41,161 nucleotides of DNA, from UHGV virus genome UHGV-0045963; one strand, 5' to 3'. This DNA is from a virus. A program made the translations under genes and the position numbers. Positions 2,498-30,913 of the stretch are shown here, one piece after another; the first letter of the stretch is position 1; each line of letters begins with the position of its first letter. The notes below the pieces were generated by a model that was not told where the DNA came from, ran no database searches, and saw nothing but the letters and a program-made list of their open reading frames with translations.

Positions 2498-3123
2498 ACA
2501 GCCAGCACCTTACTGGCAATGATGTATCGGGCGCGGCGGTCATCAATGCCGTTCCGGCCACCATTGATAATCAGAGTTACACGTGCAATATCGCCGGTAT
2601 ACTTCATGCAGCCTTTGCTGGAGAAGAACCAGGCCGCGCTACGGGCCGCGTATTCGTCCTGTGCCAGCAGTTCAGGATTCTCCAGCAGGTCAACTTTCAG
2701 ACCGTTTCCGCAGTCACGATAGTTATTCAAGCCGGTAATCTGGATAAGTCCGCGCCCACGGTAGTTCCAGCCATCACCAGGGGCATTGTTCCCCATGCGT
2801 TTGCTGTACACCAGATTGGCGATAGCGCGCTGTCGCTCAAGTGGTAATGCTGCTTCACCAGCACGGCGACCCAGTGCATTAGCCTGCCCCTGGGTGAGAC
2901 GCCCAGCCCGAACGAAGTTAGCCAGTCCGGTGACACTGTAGTTGAAATTTTCCTGCAACCGGGTGAAGCCCCCAGACTCATGCCCGACCTGAGCAATAAA
3001 CATTGCCTGATCTTCGGGTTTGCTGATTCCAAACTCTTTCATCGCAGAAGTTATATGCAAGAACCAGCGTTCGGCCAGCGCCTCGCTAATACCAGCAGCA
3101 CGCTGGAATTGTTTAATCTCCAT
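2494..3123 (-). CDS. endolysin, glycoside hydrolase family 19 (chitinase-like lysozyme)
   Basis: GH19-type motifs ([10 protein letters not shown]; [16 protein letters not shown]; AAWFFSS); RBS GAGG; sits between holin and Rz. Confidence 0.85.
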
Positions 3124-4118: not shown

Positions 4119-7100
4119 TTAACGTTCTTCCAGAGACTGAATCCGCTCTTTTATCTTATCCATTTCTCTGCGCTGCCATGCTGCCTCGATATAGAATAAG
4201 AGATCAGGTCTGACCCCCCATCTAGATCCTGCTGGCGTTATTTCAACGCGCTCAATGATGTCTTCCATTACCATCACTGGATTATCATCCTCATCAACAA
4301 TGATGCTCCCGTCATTATCAGTCAGCTGTATTTCCCTTTGGCCAGTAATGACGTCATCATATACTGCGGGATAATCGTCATAGCAAAGAAAGGCATAGCG
4401 GCATGTTGTGCTTTCTTCTTCCATGAGTCCGTGAGAAATAAGAACATCACGAAGTTGCTGCGCGATTACACCATGATGTATCCTCGCCCCTTCTTCTCCC
4501 TTTATAGCGACAGCGTTCAGCCATTTATAAGCGATATACCTGACGTCACCCCAGGCATCCAGCAATGCTTCGTCAGGAGAGACCGGCTCTGTCTTTAATG
4601 TTCCGTCACTGGTAACCACAGGATTGGAGCCAAGATAAACTGTCGAGAACCTGTTTCCCGGACCACCAAGAGCATTTACATTATCAAGATAAGGTTTAAC
4701 ATCTCCGTTCTCAAAAAGATGTTCGAGTGCGTTATATACCGCGCGACGTGGAGTACTGCTTCCGGAACCATGCAACGTTATCATTGCACCATCTGCTGAA
4801 GACGTTGTTTCACCGCCGCTAACGATTAATCTCTGAGCGGTAACATCATCAGACGGTACTTTCTTCGCAATAATGGCGTAATTGCCCTCCAGTTTGACTT
4901 CCGCGCGAACTTGTCCTGATGTACCTGCATGGACAGTCAGTGACTGGACGGCAACATCATCTGTGAAATCAACGGGTACAGGAACCGTCCTCACGCCGGA
5001 CGTCGACATAAAAGTAGGAAGCGTTCTGTTAGGAGTGGCTCCGTAGACAAAATCCCTTGAAACAAATTCTTCCTGTTTAATTTTCACCCTGAAACAATAC
5101 AAATCAGCCGGGTGACCATCGTGAACATAAGGATATTTTCTGTTGTTATCCCCTATGCTCCATGGGTTTAGAAAGTCTTCCCCACCGAAAATGTAGTACA
5201 GCCAGTTGTCTTTGATACAAACTGAACCAACACCAACCGCAGAGTTAACTATTCCGCCCTGATAAATCTGATCAGTAACATTAACCCACTCTACATTATC
5301 CAGACTCCACTCATTGACGTTAACTCTGGTCATAAATGTTCTTGGATAATTTCCTGCATAACGGTTATCAGGTTCTCCTCCTTCCCACTCACCAAATGCG
5401 CGCTCACTGCCAAAAATAATCAGCTCATCGCCAACTTTGGCAAAAGGAAGGTTTGAGTGATGAACATTATTTGGGAAGCGAAGAGAATTCCATGATGCAC
5501 CTAAATCAGAGCTTCTGTGCAATGAACTACCGGGTTGAGTACTTAATGTCCCCCTGGTCGTCAGATACAGAATGCCATCATAATATTTTACACATGGCTC
5601 AGATGCATTCGCCTCATATTCTGCAGGTATGCGTCTGCGAACAAAGCTACCAGGAGAACCGAAAGCATCAGAGAAATAGAGTATCCCAAGCTCGCGTGGA
5701 CCAATATCACCATTATGGTAGCCAACAGCAAAACTGTTATCGCTAATCGTCGCAAAACTGTGAATCTCAGTAACAGGAGTGCTTCCGTCAACAAAAGAAG
5801 AAATAGTTCCAAGACTGGTTTTTCTCCATGGTGACGAGTGAAATGATGTACCAAAACTCCAGTATCTACCCTCGTTATTCTGATCCACATCCTGAGTATT
5901 TTGCGTCGTAACTGTAAAAGTATTTTTATCAATAACAGTAGTCACCGTCATATTCCCGGTAACACCTGTAACACCAGAGTTTGAGAAGTTGACAAAATCA
6001 CCAGCAAATAATCCGTGATCAGTAATGCGAATATAAGCGACTTGCTGATTTGCTGCTTTCGTTATACCACCATAAACGCGAAGGCTGCGACTCATTGGAC
6101 GATCCCACAACTCTGCAACCTGCAGTTTATTTCCGCGCACGGTCCGCGTCTCAATTACAGCAAAAAGGCGATTTCTGACAACCCCCATACTCATGCAGTG
6201 ATAGTTAACTGTGGGATAGTTTTCATGTAAATCTGTAAGCCATTCCGGCGTTGTCCAGGTCTTCCCGTCATCTCCTGAGCGAACCCATGCAACATGGAGG
6301 TTATTTACACCATGGCGGTCTCCAGCCATAAAAGGCGCATAGATGACATTGTCATATACAAACGTTTTATCCTGCGTCCAGGCGTTGTACCACGGTGTAT
6401 CTGTAATTTTAAATAACTCTCCCTGGATAAAATCTTCAGAAGCATAAAAAAGAGGCTGACCCGGTATTCTCTCAAATAAAAAACGAGCATTTTTAAATCG
6501 GCTGACATCCGGAAGAGTTGATACTTTAAAAGTAAGCCCTAATCCGTCAATTTTATAACCTGGAGATGAGGCTTCAAGGCACGCGCTTATTGCAGTGGAA
6601 TCGTCATTTATACCATCACCAACAGCTCCAAAATCTTTGGGGCTAATAGCATCACGCATTTTATCCTGGAACGTTCGGTATACTGCCCCAGAACCATACT
6701 GAATAAACCAACCAAAACCACCAACAACCCCGGCGATTGCAGCATCGACATAATTACGCATTGAGCGATTATTTACAGCGTCCTGTTCAAGTGATGGATC
6801 TGCAAGGTTAGAAATTCTGTTTTGCTTTGCATCGTAATATTTTGCAAGCAAAGATGGTTTCATCAATGCACGTCTGAACCATCCAAAACATTGCTGGATC
6901 AGCATCGTCAGGTAGTCAAAGGCATCTTCATGCACTTCGGGGAAAAACTTTCCCTGATTGCGAAGGTCTGTCTCCTGCACTACATCAAGCACACGATCTA
7001 TCGTAATTCTCCATCCAGTAGCAAGCGGCGACGGAAGAACCACAGAACCGCCACTATAAGTGCCCGCCCCAGTTACCGTATAACCGGTATCCAGAACCAA

Positions 7101-7238
7101 TTCTGTTACGTTCCCGTTCAGGTCAGACACCTGAACAACCAGGTCGGATTTTCTGAAAATTCGAAAAGTATACGGAAACGATGTCGTAACGCCGTTACCG
7201 GTGTATTCGTTGTGGTCAACTTCGGTTGAGACCGTCAT
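4119..7238 (-). CDS. tailspike with sialidase-like (endo-N-acetylneuraminidase-like) central domain and C-terminal intramolecular chaperone (peptidase S74-like) domain
   Basis: 1039 aa; two Asp-box motifs (SGDDGKTW, SSDLGASW); C-terminal TSDGTLK ... GVIAQQL pattern of self-cleaving chaperone domains; phage fibre-type N-terminus (TGNGVTTSFPYTF). Confidence 0.85.
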   Translation of the reverse strand: MTVSTEVDHNEYTGNGVTTSFPYTFRIFRKSDLVVQVSDLNGNVTELVLDTGYTVTGAGTYSGGSVVLPSPLATGWRITIDRVLDVVQETDLRNQGKFFPEVHEDAFDYLTMLIQQCFGWFRRALMKPSLLAKYYDAKQNRISNLADPSLEQDAVNNRSMRNYVDAAIAGVVGGFGWFIQYGSGAVYRTFQDKMRDAISPKDFGAVGDGINDDSTAISACLEASSPGYKIDGLGLTFKVSTLPDVSRFKNARFLFERIPGQPLFYASEDFIQGELFKITDTPWYNAWTQDKTFVYDNVIYAPFMAGDRHGVNNLHVAWVRSGDDGKTWTTPEWLTDLHENYPTVNYHCMSMGVVRNRLFAVIETRTVRGNKLQVAELWDRPMSRSLRVYGGITKAANQQVAYIRITDHGLFAGDFVNFSNSGVTGVTGNMTVTTVIDKNTFTVTTQNTQDVDQNNEGRYWSFGTSFHSSPWRKTSLGTISSFVDGSTPVTEIHSFATISDNSFAVGYHNGDIGPRELGILYFSDAFGSPGSFVRRRIPAEYEANASEPCVKYYDGILYLTTRGTLSTQPGSSLHRSSDLGASWNSLRFPNNVHHSNLPFAKVGDELIIFGSERAFGEWEGGEPDNRYAGNYPRTFMTRVNVNEWSLDNVEWVNVTDQIYQGGIVNSAVGVGSVCIKDNWLYYIFGGEDFLNPWSIGDNNRKYPYVHDGHPADLYCFRVKIKQEEFVSRDFVYGATPNRTLPTFMSTSGVRTVPVPVDFTDDVAVQSLTVHAGTSGQVRAEVKLEGNYAIIAKKVPSDDVTAQRLIVSGGETTSSADGAMITLHGSGSSTPRRAVYNALEHLFENGDVKPYLDNVNALGGPGNRFSTVYLGSNPVVTSDGTLKTEPVSPDEALLDAWGDVRYIAYKWLNAVAIKGEEGARIHHGVIAQQLRDVLISHGLMEEESTTCRYAFLCYDDYPAVYDDVITGQREIQLTDNDGSIIVDEDDNPVMVMEDIIERVEITPAGSRWGVRPDLLFYIEAAWQRREMDKIKERIQSLEER

Positions 7239-7341: not shown

Positions 7342-7358
7342 ATTACCTTTCGGGTAAT
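7342..7358. promoter_or_regulatory. 17-bp palindromic operator-like site ATTACCTTTCGGGTAAT
   Basis: Perfect inverted repeat of the ATTACC-N5-GGTAAT family; lies in the divergent region between tailspike and the LexA-box gene. Confidence 0.6.
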
Positions 7359-8462: not shown

Positions 8463-8479
8463 ATTACCTTAAAGGTAAT
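8463..8479. promoter_or_regulatory. operator-like palindrome ATTACCTTAAAGGTAAT
   Basis: Perfect 17-bp inverted repeat between divergent genes 7715..8443 and ant. Confidence 0.6.
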
Positions 8480-8555
8480 ATCTTGCTTTCAGGTGATCAA
8501 GCGTTAAACGCAATCAACCAAATACGGTTGATTTTTATATTTATCAGCGTTTATC

Positions 8556-8572
8556 ATTACCTTTGCGGTAAA
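8556..8572. promoter_or_regulatory. operator-like palindrome ATTACCTTTGCGGTAAA
   Basis: Second copy 93 bp from the first, upstream of the ant leader. Confidence 0.55.
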
Positions 8573-8662
8573 TTTACATCGCACTCCTCTTGTGCCATAG
8601 TAATCGAGCACTGGCAAAATCCAGTGCCGGGATTTGCACCCCGGATTACTAAAAGGCGCATA

Positions 8663-8684
8663 CCACGCCAGACGTGGTTTTTTT
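8663..8684 (+). terminator. intrinsic terminator inside the ant leader
   Basis: Stem CCACG / CGTGG with loop CCAGA followed by T7; about 160 nt upstream of the ant ATG. Confidence 0.55.
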
Positions 8685-8842
8685 ATGCGTATAGCACAGT
8701 CATGCCAGAATTATGGTGGGACGTGCAGGGGCACCGAAAGGTGCGCCGGGTCCTTTTAGCCGGTAGTGCAAACCCTGTACGTCTCACCACCAACGAGATT
8801 TGCACCTCAGGTGGTGATTAACCATACTAAAAGGTGATTGCC

Positions 8843-10424: not shown

Positions 10425-10455
10425 AAACAAGGCCGCGAAAGCGGCCTGTGACATG

Positions 10456-10836
10456 TCACGCAACGCAATTATTACCGCGCCATGTAACATTTTTAATAAT
10501 CTTATCAGCACCAAACTCAACGTAAACAGAGCAACTGAAATGGAGTGTATAACCGCCATCAGTTGTTGCGTATGTGTTTGAATATATAGTATTACCAATT
10601 AGATTAGACGTAGTATTATACGTTGTGGTTTGTGGTACGTTATAACTACCAGAGCTTGAGTAAACATACACTCTGTTTCCATCTGGAGATGTAAGCTCTC
10701 CCTGAGGATACCCCCACTGCTGAACCATTGCGTCTATACTCTGCCCGCGCCACGTAAGCATATTTCTTTCAAACTGTGCAGCTGACTGGCATCCAACGAG
10801 AAGCATAAATCCAAAAATCAAAAATACTTTTCTCAT
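10456..10836 (-). CDS. lipoprotein, candidate superinfection-exclusion or surface moron
   Basis: MRKVFLIFGFMLLVGC lipobox; Thr/Ser/Asn/Tyr-rich mature part; AT-rich context between virion genes and ant. Start could be 10851 or 10872. Confidence 0.6.
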   Translation of the reverse strand: MRKVFLIFGFMLLVGCQSAAQFERNMLTWRGQSIDAMVQQWGYPQGELTSPDGNRVYVYSSSGSYNVPQTTTYNTTSNLIGNTIYSNTYATTDGGYTLHFSCSVYVEFGADKIIKNVTWRGNNCVA

Positions 10837-27034: not shown

Positions 27035-27123
27035 ATCAATGACTCCGTACGCAATTAAATTATTACCAATTTAACCACATATGATTTATTTATCGTAGAA
27101 GGTTGACATTTAACGCGTTAATT

Positions 27124-27140
27124 ATTACCTTTCAGGTAAC
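27124..27140. promoter_or_regulatory. operator-like palindrome ATTACCTTTCAGGTAAC
   Basis: Same family; preceded by TTGACA (27103..27108); in the intergenic region between the portal operon and the plus-strand tRNA unit. Confidence 0.55.
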
Positions 27141-27461
27141 CAAAGGGCTCATTCTGGTTACTAACCTGACTGGCTTGTCGTTAAATTAAACAGGTGGAGT
27201 GAGCTTTTATTTTGAGCAGTACGGCGTATGGCACATGCGCCGATAGCGGTCTGGATACGTTTAAGGGGCACCCTCCCTTGCTCGGGCAAACGAACCAGGT
27301 AGCCGGAATGTGCAAGTCGAGCGGTTTTATTCCGCGCACGGGGATTCACCATCCCGGCGATTCGGTGTGACGCCTCGGAAGAGACGAGGGTACAACGATG
27401 AGAGCATTTATGGAGCCGCGACAAAGTGTGGCGCCTTAACAGGCTAAGTGCTCTCAGCGTT

Positions 27462-27538
27462 GTGGCATTAGCTCAGTTGGACAGAGCAACCGCCTTCTAA
27501 GCGGTTGGTCGCAGGTTCGAATCCTGCATGCCACGCCA
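27462..27538 (+). tRNA. tRNA-Arg (anticodon UCU, decodes AGA)
   Basis: Hand-folded cloverleaf: 7-bp acceptor stem GTGGCAT/ATGCCAC, D-stem GCTC/GAGC, anticodon stem ACCGC/GCGGT with loop CTTCTAA, T-arm GCAGG-TTCGAAT-CCTGC, discriminator G and encoded CCA. Confidence 0.9.
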
Positions 27539-27581
27539 GAATCACGCCTAAGGACCGTGATGCCAGAAGTTCCAGGTGCTT

Positions 27582-27623
27582 GGCGGGGATAGTTTCCCTT
27601 GAAGGACTATCACCGCCCTTTTT
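27582..27623 (+). terminator. intrinsic terminator downstream of the tRNA
   Basis: 12-bp stem GGCGGGGATAGT / ACTATCACCGCC (one mismatch) followed by CTTTTT. Confidence 0.65.
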
Positions 27624-27701
27624 ACAGCAGGACGCCATTGCGATGACTTCATGCTGTAAACCCGTACAGCCACGGAAGGCATAACTCATTGCTTCCAGTT
27701 C

Positions 27702-27725
27702 GCCCGGTTCGCCGGGCATTTTTTT
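27702..27725 (+). terminator. terminator or attenuator hairpin immediately upstream of the 27737 RBS
   Basis: Stem GCCCGG / CCGGGC with loop TTCG followed by T7, then RBS AAGGTG and ATG. Confidence 0.55.
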
Positions 27726-27736
27726 AAGGTGAGATT

Positions 27737-28111
27737 ATGAACGACCAGCAAATCGAAAAAGAAATCGTTGAGAAAGGCAAAACCGCTCCGCGTGTAACAC
27801 CCGAGAAAATTGAAGGCCTCATTTGCAGTGAGCATTTTTTCACTGCTGCGCAGGGTGACCACCAGGCTAAAGAAGATGACCTTATTTATAATCCGGAGCC
27901 TTATGTCGAAGCCACCCCTGATGCTCTGCACCTTCTCACTTTCTGCGTATTGGTACTGAAGAATGGCTTCACCGTTACCGGAGAGAGTGCCTGTGCAAGC
28001 CCGGAAAACTTTGATGCAGAAATTGGTCGGAAGATTGCCCGGCAGAATGCTGTAAACAAAATCTGGATGCTCGAAGGTTACTTGCTGAAGCAGAAGTTAA
28101 GCGAGCAATAA
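27737..28111 (+). CDS. hypothetical 124-aa protein (moron-type gene next to the tRNA)
   Basis: RBS AAGGTG; opposite strand to the surrounding virion genes; no family recognised. Confidence 0.6.
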   Translation: MNDQQIEKEIVEKGKTAPRVTPEKIEGLICSEHFFTAAQGDHQAKEDDLIYNPEPYVEATPDALHLLTFCVLVLKNGFTVTGESACASPENFDAEIGRKIARQNAVNKIWMLEGYLLKQKLSEQ

Positions 28112-28132
28112 CACCGTGACATGTCACAAACA

Positions 28133-28160
28133 GCCAGCCGATGAGCTGGCTTTGTTTTAT
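28133..28160. terminator. terminator in the convergent region between 27737..28111 and the terminase large subunit
   Basis: Stem GCCAGC / GCTGGC with loop CGATGA followed by TTTGTTTTAT. Confidence 0.55.
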
Positions 28161-28201
28161 CCTCACCAGAGGATATCAGCAGTATTATCCCCACCAGCGG
28201 A

Positions 28202-30557: not shown

Positions 30558-30574
30558 AACACCTTCGTGACATG

Positions 30575-30913
30575 TCACACTATTAATTTCGTTTCATGCC
30601 AGCCTTTAGTCACCCAGCATTGCGAGTCACCATTACACGGGCATGAATTAACGGGAACTCTCTCGCCGCACTTACCGCAAAGTTTTCTGCTGATCGATTT
30701 TATACGCCCGCGCACACGTGCATCATCCTGGCGGATCAGCAGCGCGATGTACTCGGCCATTTCATAGGGATCGTGACCAGGGCGCCGGGCGGCGCAGTTC
30801 CGCGCCAGCATTTCCTGCTCCTGCTTATCCAGCACCAGTTCAATTTTGCGCTCACCGGCGGCGGACTGCCGAGCGCGCTGCGCGGCTTTGCGCTCTGCTG
30901 CTGATTTAGCCAT
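30575..30913 (-). CDS. small basic protein with C-terminal Cys-rich zinc-ribbon-like motif
   Basis: N-terminal MAKSAAERKAAQRARQ; C-terminal CGKCGERVPVNSCPCNGDSQC; RBS AAGGTG. Confidence 0.5.
   Translation of the reverse strand: MAKSAAERKAAQRARQSAAGERKIELVLDKQEQEMLARNCAARRPGHDPYEMAEYIALLIRQDDARVRGRIKSISRKLCGKCGERVPVNSCPCNGDSQCWVTKGWHETKLIV

Follow-up and report, generated by a model that had tools for sequence, protein, structure and literature searches.

A conserved structured RNA beside a tRNA-Arg(UCU) gene and an acb4-family gene in a putative early operon of phiV10/epsilon15-like phages

Introduction

The virus genome UHGV-0045963 (41,161 nucleotides (nt); this whole stretch is called the window below) carries at positions 27035-28160 a short block that is read on the plus strand in the midst of genes on the minus strand, and the question raised by this locus is what such a counter-reading block could be doing there. 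An earlier note on this DNA had rightly seen an opposite-strand accessory cassette with terminase on one side and portal on the other, the flanking genes all lying on the minus strand, and had interpreted its tRNA-Arg(UCU) gene, its open reading frame (ORF) of 124 amino acids and its three terminators as an inserted, self-contained moron. BLAST finds 96-97% identity over 27050-28200 with Escherichia phage phiV10 and its relatives, by which the window is a phiV10/epsilon15-like prophage, that is, a temperate podovirus of the genus Uetakevirus.

We report that the cassette also contains, at 27222-27461, a conserved structured RNA of about 240 nt, which by its alignment and by the searches described below is a new family. 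On balance, we consider it somewhat more likely than not that the interval forms a single accessory unit, transcribed early in this phiV10/epsilon15-like podovirus, which reads against the late genes and makes a processed stable RNA. The tRNA and the acb4-family gene are of already known kinds, and the phiV10 homologue of the latter is already in the literature; both can be explained by existing knowledge, and the novelty lies in the RNA.

Results and discussion

A structured RNA upstream of the tRNA gene

The stretch 27140-27460 had been taken for spacer. It turns out to hold the conserved RNA, which accounts for about a fifth of the interval and whose parts are the following.

27222-27389, plus strand: core of the structured RNA, with five covarying helices including a pseudoknot
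27222-27230 with 27234-27242, plus strand: helix H1
27246-27247 and 27250-27253 with 27296-27299 and 27302-27303, plus strand: helix H2, closing a variable hairpin with a UCCCUU loop motif
27298-27316, plus strand: invariant 19-mer GGUAGCCGGAAUGUGCAAG (listed as DNA, GGTAGCCGGAATGTGCAAG), one copy in the window
about 27320-27338, plus strand: H3, a variable hairpin
27341-27344 with 27352-27355, plus strand: helix H4
27347-27350 with 27364-27367, plus strand: pseudoknot of the H4 loop (CACC) with a downstream GGUG
27373-27377 with 27385-27389, plus strand: helix H5
27393-27461, plus strand: P6, a long terminal hairpin, CAACGAUGAGAGC... ...GCUCUCAGCGUUG, with a variable tip

We extracted 129 copies of the element, 108 of them distinct, and aligned 45 representatives below 90% identity with MAFFT. 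The alignment supports the five helices H1, H2, H4, H5 and the pseudoknot. Paired cells amount to 97.1%, against at most 52.6% when the partners are slid, 12 pairs have changed on both sides, and the covariation score was reached by none of 500 shuffles. In the pseudoknot, for example, a C-G pair becomes A-U alongside a loop change from CACC to AACC, and the U-G and G-U pairs that are kept are possible on the plus strand only. The terminal hairpin P6 (dG -34.4, z -5.9), whose last predicted pair involves G27462, the first base of the tRNA, has arms that covary over 35 distinct copies and a tip that ranges from 44 to 205 nt; insertions and deletions are limited to hairpin tips. An apical UCC(C)UU loop, resembling an anti-Shine-Dalgarno sequence, is present in 30 of the 45 representatives, compared with 2.2 in shuffles. 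The covariance model built from this alignment, R1, recognizes one copy in the window, at 150.7 bits.

The conservation of 27222-27461 might also be explained at another level, by a DNA site for recombination or protein binding or by a small protein gene. ORFs of 45-87 amino acids do overlap the element on both strands, the record of phage mEp460 annotates a hypothetical protein there, and some minus-strand frame is free of stops in 36 of the 45 copies. However, the spacing between conserved blocks is not kept modulo 3 (17/14/14 and 13/10/22), so that no protein is likely to be encoded through the element, and the protein-coding reading was rejected on this ground. Since the compensatory changes in five helices, some of them through G-U pairs workable on the plus strand only, and the restriction of indels to hairpin tips also disagree with a DNA-level site, we give this whole explanation a next to negligible chance. 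The compensatory changes, the covariation of P6 and the absence of a kept reading frame argue instead that the element acts as an RNA on the plus strand.

Searches of Rfam 15 with 27139-27461 gave no match at the gathering score, including to ROOL and GOLLD. When the threshold was relaxed to E <= 5, the sole overlap was a 14-bit match to a long non-coding RNA on the minus strand of the leader, which we take as chance, and nothing was found at E <= 1 over the element in P1, mEp460, mEp390 and BUCT708. Neither its sequence strings nor related topics led to any account of the element in full-text searches of the literature. A mimicry of ribosomal RNA was considered and rejected: the element has identities of 13/13 with 23S rRNA 1822-1834 and of 11/11 with 16S rRNA, which are not significant (nhmmer E 0.1-0.2 on 5.8 kb). 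The 23S identity lies at 27363-27375 of the window (CGGUGUGACGCCU), and the family consensus shares AUACGGUGUGAC; with an nhmmer E of 0.1 we note it as a lead only.

Distribution and genomic neighbours of the RNA

A BLAST search for distant matches to 27035-27461 returned non-coding DNA of unrelated phages that matches 27221-27461 at about 80% identity. Among them are the lambdoid phages mEp460, cdtI, twelve Stx2c-converting phages, Ayreon and 2H10, and furthermore P1, P7, D6, SJ46, RCS47, Klebsiella phage SopranoGao and a phage isolated on Stenotrophomonas. The invariant 19-mer is found without mismatch in at least 120 contigs of IMG/VR, as well as in 20 of 21 genomes chosen by a different pattern. 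Copies detected by the R1 model extend over about a dozen genera of Enterobacterales, such as Klebsiella, Citrobacter, Kosakonia, Phytobacter, Kluyvera and Erwinia. In Escherichia coli, the element occurs in 1064 of 5426 complete genomes (about 20%), at 965 chromosomal places and at 276 on plasmids, and among the E. coli matches listed no annotated feature lies under it except the adjacent tRNA. The cryptic prophage CPS-53 of strain K-12, a relative of the mEp460 early-left operon, is without the element.

Two tRNA arrangements recur among 153 loci whose flanks were compared. In 28 of them a tRNA-Arg(UCU) begins exactly at the end of P6, as it does in the window, and in 18 others a tRNA-Ile2 ends about 19 nt before H1. 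The latter is the arrangement of P1, where the element starts 19 nt after trnI (tRNA-Ile2), before ban, within the C1-controlled ban operon. A different neighbour stands on the upstream side of 58 out of 130 distinct loci, namely a same-strand gene for a CI-type repressor (S24) at a distance of 139-158 nt. In mEp460 and mEp390, the gap between repressor gene and RNA contains the cI terminator, operator-like repeats and a promoter, from which it follows that the RNA should start about 40-50 nt into the early-left (PL) transcript. On the downstream side, the first ORF is Acb4-like in 11 loci, Tad2-like (PF11195) in 8, Ban in 8 and RdgC in 3, and is otherwise unassigned. In the 8 loci with the Tad2-like anti-Thoeris sponge (IMG/VR clusters L085 and L074), this protein replaces Acb4 after the RNA or tRNA. 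The slot after the RNA/tRNA behaves as an anti-defence hot spot.

The position behind early-left promoters raises the possibility that the structured RNA is a cis-acting processive antiterminator, analogous but unrelated to put of phage HK022. The nascent RNA would alter RNA polymerase so as to permit read-through of the terminators T1 and T2 (see below) into acb4 in the window, and of leader terminators into the early-left operon in the lambdoid relatives. We consider this main rival unlikely, although several observations agree with it. The 58 loci just mentioned have the RNA 139-158 nt after the repressor gene, mEp460 and mEp390 show the order cI terminator, operators and promoter, and RNA at about +40 to +50, and their early-left operons begin with genes unlike N. 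Moreover, terminator-like hairpins separate the RNA from the first gene both in the window and in mEp390, acb4 lacks its own promoter, and the extreme invariance of the sequence suits a conserved machine such as RNA polymerase. On the other hand, the R1 model has no match in HK022, whose putL looks unrelated. Each phage has a single copy, with none after PR, and the element is not confined to promoter-proximal positions, the P1 copy lying 2.4 kb into its operon right after a tRNA and that of SopranoGao after lysis genes. A canonical boxA directly follows the RNA in some relatives. Terminator-like sites are only weakly enriched downstream of the RNA, where they number 1.12 per kb against 0.78; upstream they number 1.23 per kb. 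A downstream site lies within 800 nt at no more than 64 of the 130 loci. Finally, epsilon15 keeps T2 and the ORF despite having lost the RNA.

A sensor is another conceivable role for an ornate leader RNA. As a riboswitch or thermosensor responding to a metabolite or an immune signal, the element would set the expression of the early or anti-defence genes that follow it, and such a function would fit its pseudoknotted core, in which, as in aptamers, the junction nucleotides are invariant and the peripheral hairpins variable, together with the Acb4-like and Tad2-like genes that it precedes in 19 loci. Nevertheless, the copies share no common expression platform, in the window the first terminator of possible relevance is set apart from the RNA by a tRNA and about 170 nt, the RNA of P1 sits after a tRNA and before ban, the downstream genes are heterogeneous, and no Rfam aptamer matches. 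A sensor is therefore very unlikely in our view.

Other features of early-left leaders deserve mention in their own right. In Stenotrophomonas phage BUCT708, a small RNA (sRNA) module resembling RprA directly follows the structured RNA in the PL leader (2631-2750 of sequence L009). It matches Rfam RF00034 at 50.2 bits (E 2e-5), below the gathering score of 70, and has a seed, AAUUGCUGUGUGUAGUCUU, and a terminator. The same 15-nt RprA-like seed with a terminator is found in mEp390 (L010, about 2908-2978). Long hairpins similar to P6, of the form CACAAC..GA(A/G)AGCGC ... GCGCU(U/C)CCAGUUGUG, recur in early-left leaders that are 300-600 nt long and free of genes; they lie in mEp390 (L010, 2805-2890 and 2970-3052), in mEp460 (L005, about 2930-3035) and in epsilon15 (L007, about 2716-2815). 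One such hairpin is entered in the epsilon15 record as an RNase III site.

Epsilon15 as a deletion derivative

Among the phages with the same arrangement of the locus, epsilon15 differs in retaining only H1 and half of H2. It is without the remaining RNA, the tRNA and half of T1, and keeps the promoter, the leader, T2 and the ORF. The junction (L007, 2797-2880) falls within a 13-nt direct repeat, TTCCCTTGATGCT, which Salmonella phage SPN9TCW (L003) has both in the H2 loop (about 3150) and in the T1 loop (about 3545). On this evidence epsilon15 is a deletion derivative. The earlier idea of an insertion between terminase and portal is not supported in view of this, as promoter, leader, T2 and ORF are common to epsilon15 and it is epsilon15 that has lost the tRNA.

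Promoter, operator and leader

Transcription of the RNA would begin from the following elements.

27103-27131, plus strand: putative sigma-70 promoter, with -35 TTGACA at 27103-27108, a 17-nt spacer and a weak -10 TACCTT at 27126-27131
27124-27140, no strand assigned: 17-bp palindromic repressor operator ATTACCTTTCAGGTAAC, overlapping the -10; the equivalent site of epsilon15 is annotated 'repressor, lysogeny'
27138-27221, plus strand: Uetakevirus-specific leader, corresponding to the 3' half of a long hairpin annotated as an RNase III site in the epsilon15 record

The operator-associated TTGACA noticed previously is thus present, and alignment shows that the promoter is conserved in epsilon15 and SPN9TCW. 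The operator motif has 14 sites in the window where 1.3 are expected. The leader itself, as present in the window, folds no better than shuffled sequences (z -0.73).

Because the -10 of this promoter lies under the operator of the phage repressor, the unit is better understood as an early derepressible accessory operon than as a moron expressed in the lysogen. We infer that it is silent in the lysogen and expressed early upon induction or infection. The alternative, in which a tRNA and a silent or attenuated ORF form a self-contained moron and 27140-27460 is no more than spacer or leader, has in its favour that the tRNA, the ORF and the terminators are real and that the half of the unit bearing the ORF (27734-28104) is separately mobile, being about 90% identical to Sf6 gene 66. 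Yet no other non-coding element of the interval is as conserved as the supposed spacer, which is common to P1 and lambdoid phages, the only plausible promoter has its -10 under an operator, and the frame of the unit is ancestral in Uetakevirus. We regard a moron of this kind as highly improbable. In sum, the tRNA, ORF, terminators, operator and palindrome described in the earlier note all stand, while the self-contained moron and the insertion are not supported and the spacer is contradicted.

Several observations concern the operator beyond this unit. Sites of the form ATTACCT-N3-AGGTAAT with at most two mismatches start at 7342, 8463, 8556, 9601, 27124, 34089, 34151, 36090, 36571, 37282 and 37344, and two pairs have a spacing of 62 nt (34089/34151 and 37282/37344); together, these copies look like a map of the repressor regulon of the phage. 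The copies at 8463 and 8556 precede isrK (67 bits) and a C4 antisense RNA (78 bits), which stand in tandem at 8463-8794. This region resembles the immI-type antirepressor control module of P1, here in an epsilon15-like phage, and an isrK/C4 pair is also found beside the antirepressor gene of mEp460 (L005, 206-394).

The tRNA, the terminators and the acb4-family gene

Downstream of the structured RNA, the unit comprises the following features.

27462-27538, plus strand: tRNA-Arg(UCU) with encoded 3' CCA, found by ARAGORN and Rfam
27582-27623, plus strand: T1, a terminator-like hairpin followed by U5 (stem-loop 27582-27617, U5 27619-27623), loop with UUUCCCUUGA
27702-27725, plus strand: T2, a canonical intrinsic terminator, GCCCGG-UUCG-CCGGGC at 27702-27717 followed by U7, abutting the ribosome-binding site (RBS)
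27737-28111, plus strand: acb4-family gene, 124 amino acids, PF13876 (Phage_gp49_66); RBS AAGGTGAG at 27726-27733, 4 nt before the ATG
28116-28127, no strand assigned: 12-bp palindrome GTGACATGTCAC, repeated in the window
28132-28160, plus strand: T3, a terminator-like hairpin (28132-28151) followed by UUGUUUUAU, closing the unit

The tRNA-Arg(UCU) proposed in the earlier note was recovered by ARAGORN at 27462-27538 as the only tRNA of the whole 41-kb window (anticodon tct at position 35), and it matches the Rfam tRNA family RF00005 at 73.3 bits (gathering score 29, E 2.5e-14). The gene has GCCA as its 3' terminus, and the records of O157 typing phage 9 and SPN9TCW list the same gene as tRNA-Arg. 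AGA codons, whose count had been suggested as a check, make up 93 of the 12565 codons in 52 non-overlapping ORFs of the window, that is 7.4 per 1000 and 12% of arginine codons, which exceeds the average of about 2 per 1000 in E. coli. They are most numerous, at 18, in the tailspike gene (4119-7238), present also in large virion genes and some early genes, and absent from the genes for portal, capsid, protease and the large terminase subunit (TerL). It is plausible, to judge by these codon counts, that the tRNA supplies AGA decoding, and it may also have a role against tRNA-targeting defences.

All three terminators that had been proposed are present as GC-rich hairpins followed by a U run, and termination is predicted at each. 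T1 has a folding energy of -18.3 kcal/mol, and SPN9TCW has at its position a hairpin of another sequence with the same loop. T2 has a 6-bp GC stem and a UUCG loop (-12.7 kcal/mol). Epsilon15 preserves this stem by two compensatory exchanges (GCCCAC/GUGGGC), and T2 is entered in its record as a rho-independent terminator. T3 is annotated on the minus strand as a terminator in the phiV10 record; its fold of -15.5 kcal/mol refers to a 51-nt stretch that also contains the palindrome hairpin. A scan for a GC-rich hairpin with a U run picks up T2 and T3. In a simple scan, terminator-like sites are no commoner than in shuffles (2, with 3.6 +/- 1.9 expected), and the hairpins are credible because of their placement and conservation, not their frequency.

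The palindrome, which had been mentioned with a terminator as the downstream boundary, does lie at 28116-28127 just before T3. It has three copies in the window (10448-10459, 28116-28127 and 30567-30578) compared with 0.15 expected, every copy lies at a gene boundary, AACACC precedes two of them, and it may bind some regulator. We also noticed that a CU-rich motif resembling an anti-Shine-Dalgarno sequence, UCCCUUG, occurs in the apical region of H2 (27281-27286) and in the T1 loop (27594-27602), and that it is complementary to UUAAGG of the acb4 RBS.

The profile search proposed for the 124-amino-acid ORF, which indeed spans 27737-28111 behind the RBS AAGGTGAG, gave PF13876 over the whole profile (118.1 bits, cutoff 27; E 2.4e-34). 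The only relative in the PDB is 9E4W, 'anti-CBASS 4 (Acb4)' (phmmer E 0.0039, residues 56-109), CBASS being the cyclic oligonucleotide-based antiphage signalling system. PF13876 is the Acb4 family in two recent studies, in which Acb4 proteins are described as tetrameric sponges for 3'3'-cGAMP and related CBASS signals (10.1101/2024.12.30.630793; 10.1101/2025.07.12.664507). Sponge activity was published for SPO1 Acb4 and eight homologues, the window protein not being among them, and Table S3 of that study, with 1,331 homologues, includes the proteins of phiV10, epsilon15, Sf6 (gene 66) and N4 (gp49) (10.1101/2024.12.30.630793). The last 59 C-terminal residues of the window protein are identical to the Sf6 entry of that table. 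By these profile and sequence matches membership of the Acb4 family is solid, and a function as a cyclic-nucleotide sponge against CBASS is predicted from the family. PADLOC made no call for the ORF, and PHROGs returned 'unknown function' only.

We compared the ligand contacts of SPO1 Acb4 (K36, F48, E49, V56, Y57, F62, N63, I66, T70 and K81) with the window protein, which is longer in its N-terminal half (124 amino acids vs 96 in the protein of this Bacillus phage). The window protein retains the ENFxxEIGR block and the residues that correspond to F48, F62 and I66. K36, E49, Y57 and T70 are replaced by D, T, A and I, and N63, a backbone contact, by D; K81 lies beyond the aligned stretch. BLAST finds the half of the unit bearing the ORF (27734-28104) about 90% identical to Sf6 gene 66 and to sequences of IME10 and other phages, by which it is a separately mobile piece.

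No promoter for acb4 was found between T1 and T2, by eye or by scan. As the T2 hairpin lies 8 nt before the RBS and no good promoter lies between the two terminators, acb4 must be expressed by read-through. The earlier suggestion of a silent or attenuated ORF agrees with this arrangement, and a conditionally expressed effector is plausible for a member of a family of anti-defence sponges. A sponge gene placed behind two terminators and an operator-covered promoter is a modest addition to what is known.

Host phage and flanking genes

The gene order of the locus is the same in phiV10, O157 typing phage 9, SPN9TCW and epsilon15: small terminase subunit (TerS), TerL, the plus-strand insert, a small gp3-like ORF and portal, all but the insert being on the minus strand. 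Pfam identifies the portal (PF12236) and TerS (PF03592) proteins; TerL has no Pfam match and is named solely from the annotation of phiV10. Between the gp3-like ORF and TTGACA (27035-27100), the window, epsilon15 and SPN9TCW differ at only 4-5 positions, beside the gp3-like start. This stretch is far better conserved than its flanks and may carry a minus-strand promoter for the gp3-portal late genes. An 83-amino-acid ORF annotated in phiV10 (PhiV10p04) corresponds to 27468-27719 on the minus strand, antisense to the tRNA and T1, and is probably no gene.

A model for the unit

We propose that transcription would start at about 27138 on induction or infection, and that the primary transcript would comprise, in this order, the leader, the structured RNA and the tRNA. 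RNase P, cutting at the 5' end of the tRNA (27461/27462), would give the structured RNA a 3' end at P6. Most transcripts would end at T1, and those that pass both T1 and T2 would serve as acb4 mRNA, so that the sponge could absorb the cyclic-nucleotide alarm signals of CBASS. The tRNA would help AGA decoding, and the structured RNA would persist as a separate, processed and stable early species that acts in trans on a conserved component of the host.

For this last step, the action of a discrete, processed and stable RNA in trans on a conserved host component, we see about even chances. It is favoured because the element is a portable module that occupies differing positions in operons, because tRNAs or long hairpins flank it, one of these hairpins being annotated as an RNase III site in epsilon15, and because neighbouring modules in related leaders look like sRNAs, one being RprA-like with a seed and a terminator. 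The conservation of the anti-Shine-Dalgarno-like UCC(C)UU apical loop points the same way, and the invariance of the sequence across hosts suggests that the partner is itself conserved.

Some of our results weigh against the processed stable RNA and the unit as a whole. No tRNA is adjacent in 107 of the 153 loci, and in the 58 loci with a repressor gene upstream the RNA lies about 40-50 nt after a PL-type promoter, the classic position of a cis-acting elongation element. Epsilon15 is viable although it has lost most of the RNA, which must therefore be dispensable, at least in the laboratory. The promoter at 27103-27131 was not called by a scan for consensus promoters, which misses it because the -10 fits only 3 of 6 consensus positions. 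T1 and T2 look efficient, which would limit acb4 mRNA, and the residues by which SPO1 Acb4 reads guanine, K36 and E49, are not conserved in the window protein.

It is tempting to go one step further, and to regard the RNA at 27222-27461 as a new immediate-early class that engages a universally conserved host machine. It could then be an RNA-only antiterminator unrelated to put, or a decoy that blinds an RNA-sensing or tRNA-targeting defence (e.g. the CBASS CD-NTase), acting together with the sponge genes often found behind it. We hold this to be possible but doubtful. In any case, the RNA stands first in the early-left transcripts of many prophages, often joined to rare-codon tRNAs and then to anti-defence genes, and it is likely to bear on how temperate phages begin lytic growth or evade defence.

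Comparison with known systems

Rare-codon tRNAs, such as tRNA-Arg(UCU) and the tRNA-Ile2 of Shiga toxin (Stx) phages and P1, are carried by phages, and the window follows this pattern with an AGA use about 3.5 times that of the host. In P1, the tRNA-Ile2 adjoins the same structured RNA. Unlike those phage tRNAs, that of the window is joined head-to-tail to a structured RNA under an operator-covered promoter.

In its position, the element could be likened to putL and putR of HK022, in that a structured RNA stands at the start of the PL transcript in lambdoid operons without an N-like first gene; this likeness is one of position only. A homology with put was rejected, since the R1 model finds nothing in the immunity region of HK022 and putL does not resemble the element in sequence. 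One 14-nt stretch shared with HK022 falls inside the nun coding sequence, is not collinear and is taken as chance. Whereas put is cis-acting, two-stemmed and about 70 nt long, the element measures 170-240 nt, has one copy per phage, and is also found in mid-operon in P1 and beside tRNAs.

ROOL, GOLLD and the stable species 1 and 2 RNAs of the T4 tRNA cluster are RNAs whose function is unknown and which often lie beside tRNA genes. Like them, the element is phage-borne, ornate, non-coding and often adjacent to a tRNA. It differs in being smaller and in its restriction to phages of Enterobacterales and one phage recorded on Stenotrophomonas.

A third parallel is offered by DicF, the dicF-like region of the P1 ban operon and the RprA-like modules, which are likewise non-coding RNAs within repressor-controlled early operons. 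DicF-type sRNAs are released by processing from prophage early operons, and an RprA-like module follows the element in two relatives. In contrast to these sRNAs, the element is much larger and pseudoknotted, and its sole seed-like feature is the conserved UCC(C)UU loop. Taken together, these comparisons suggest that the element resembles in kind both the ornate tRNA-adjacent RNAs of phages and the sRNAs that are processed from prophage early operons.

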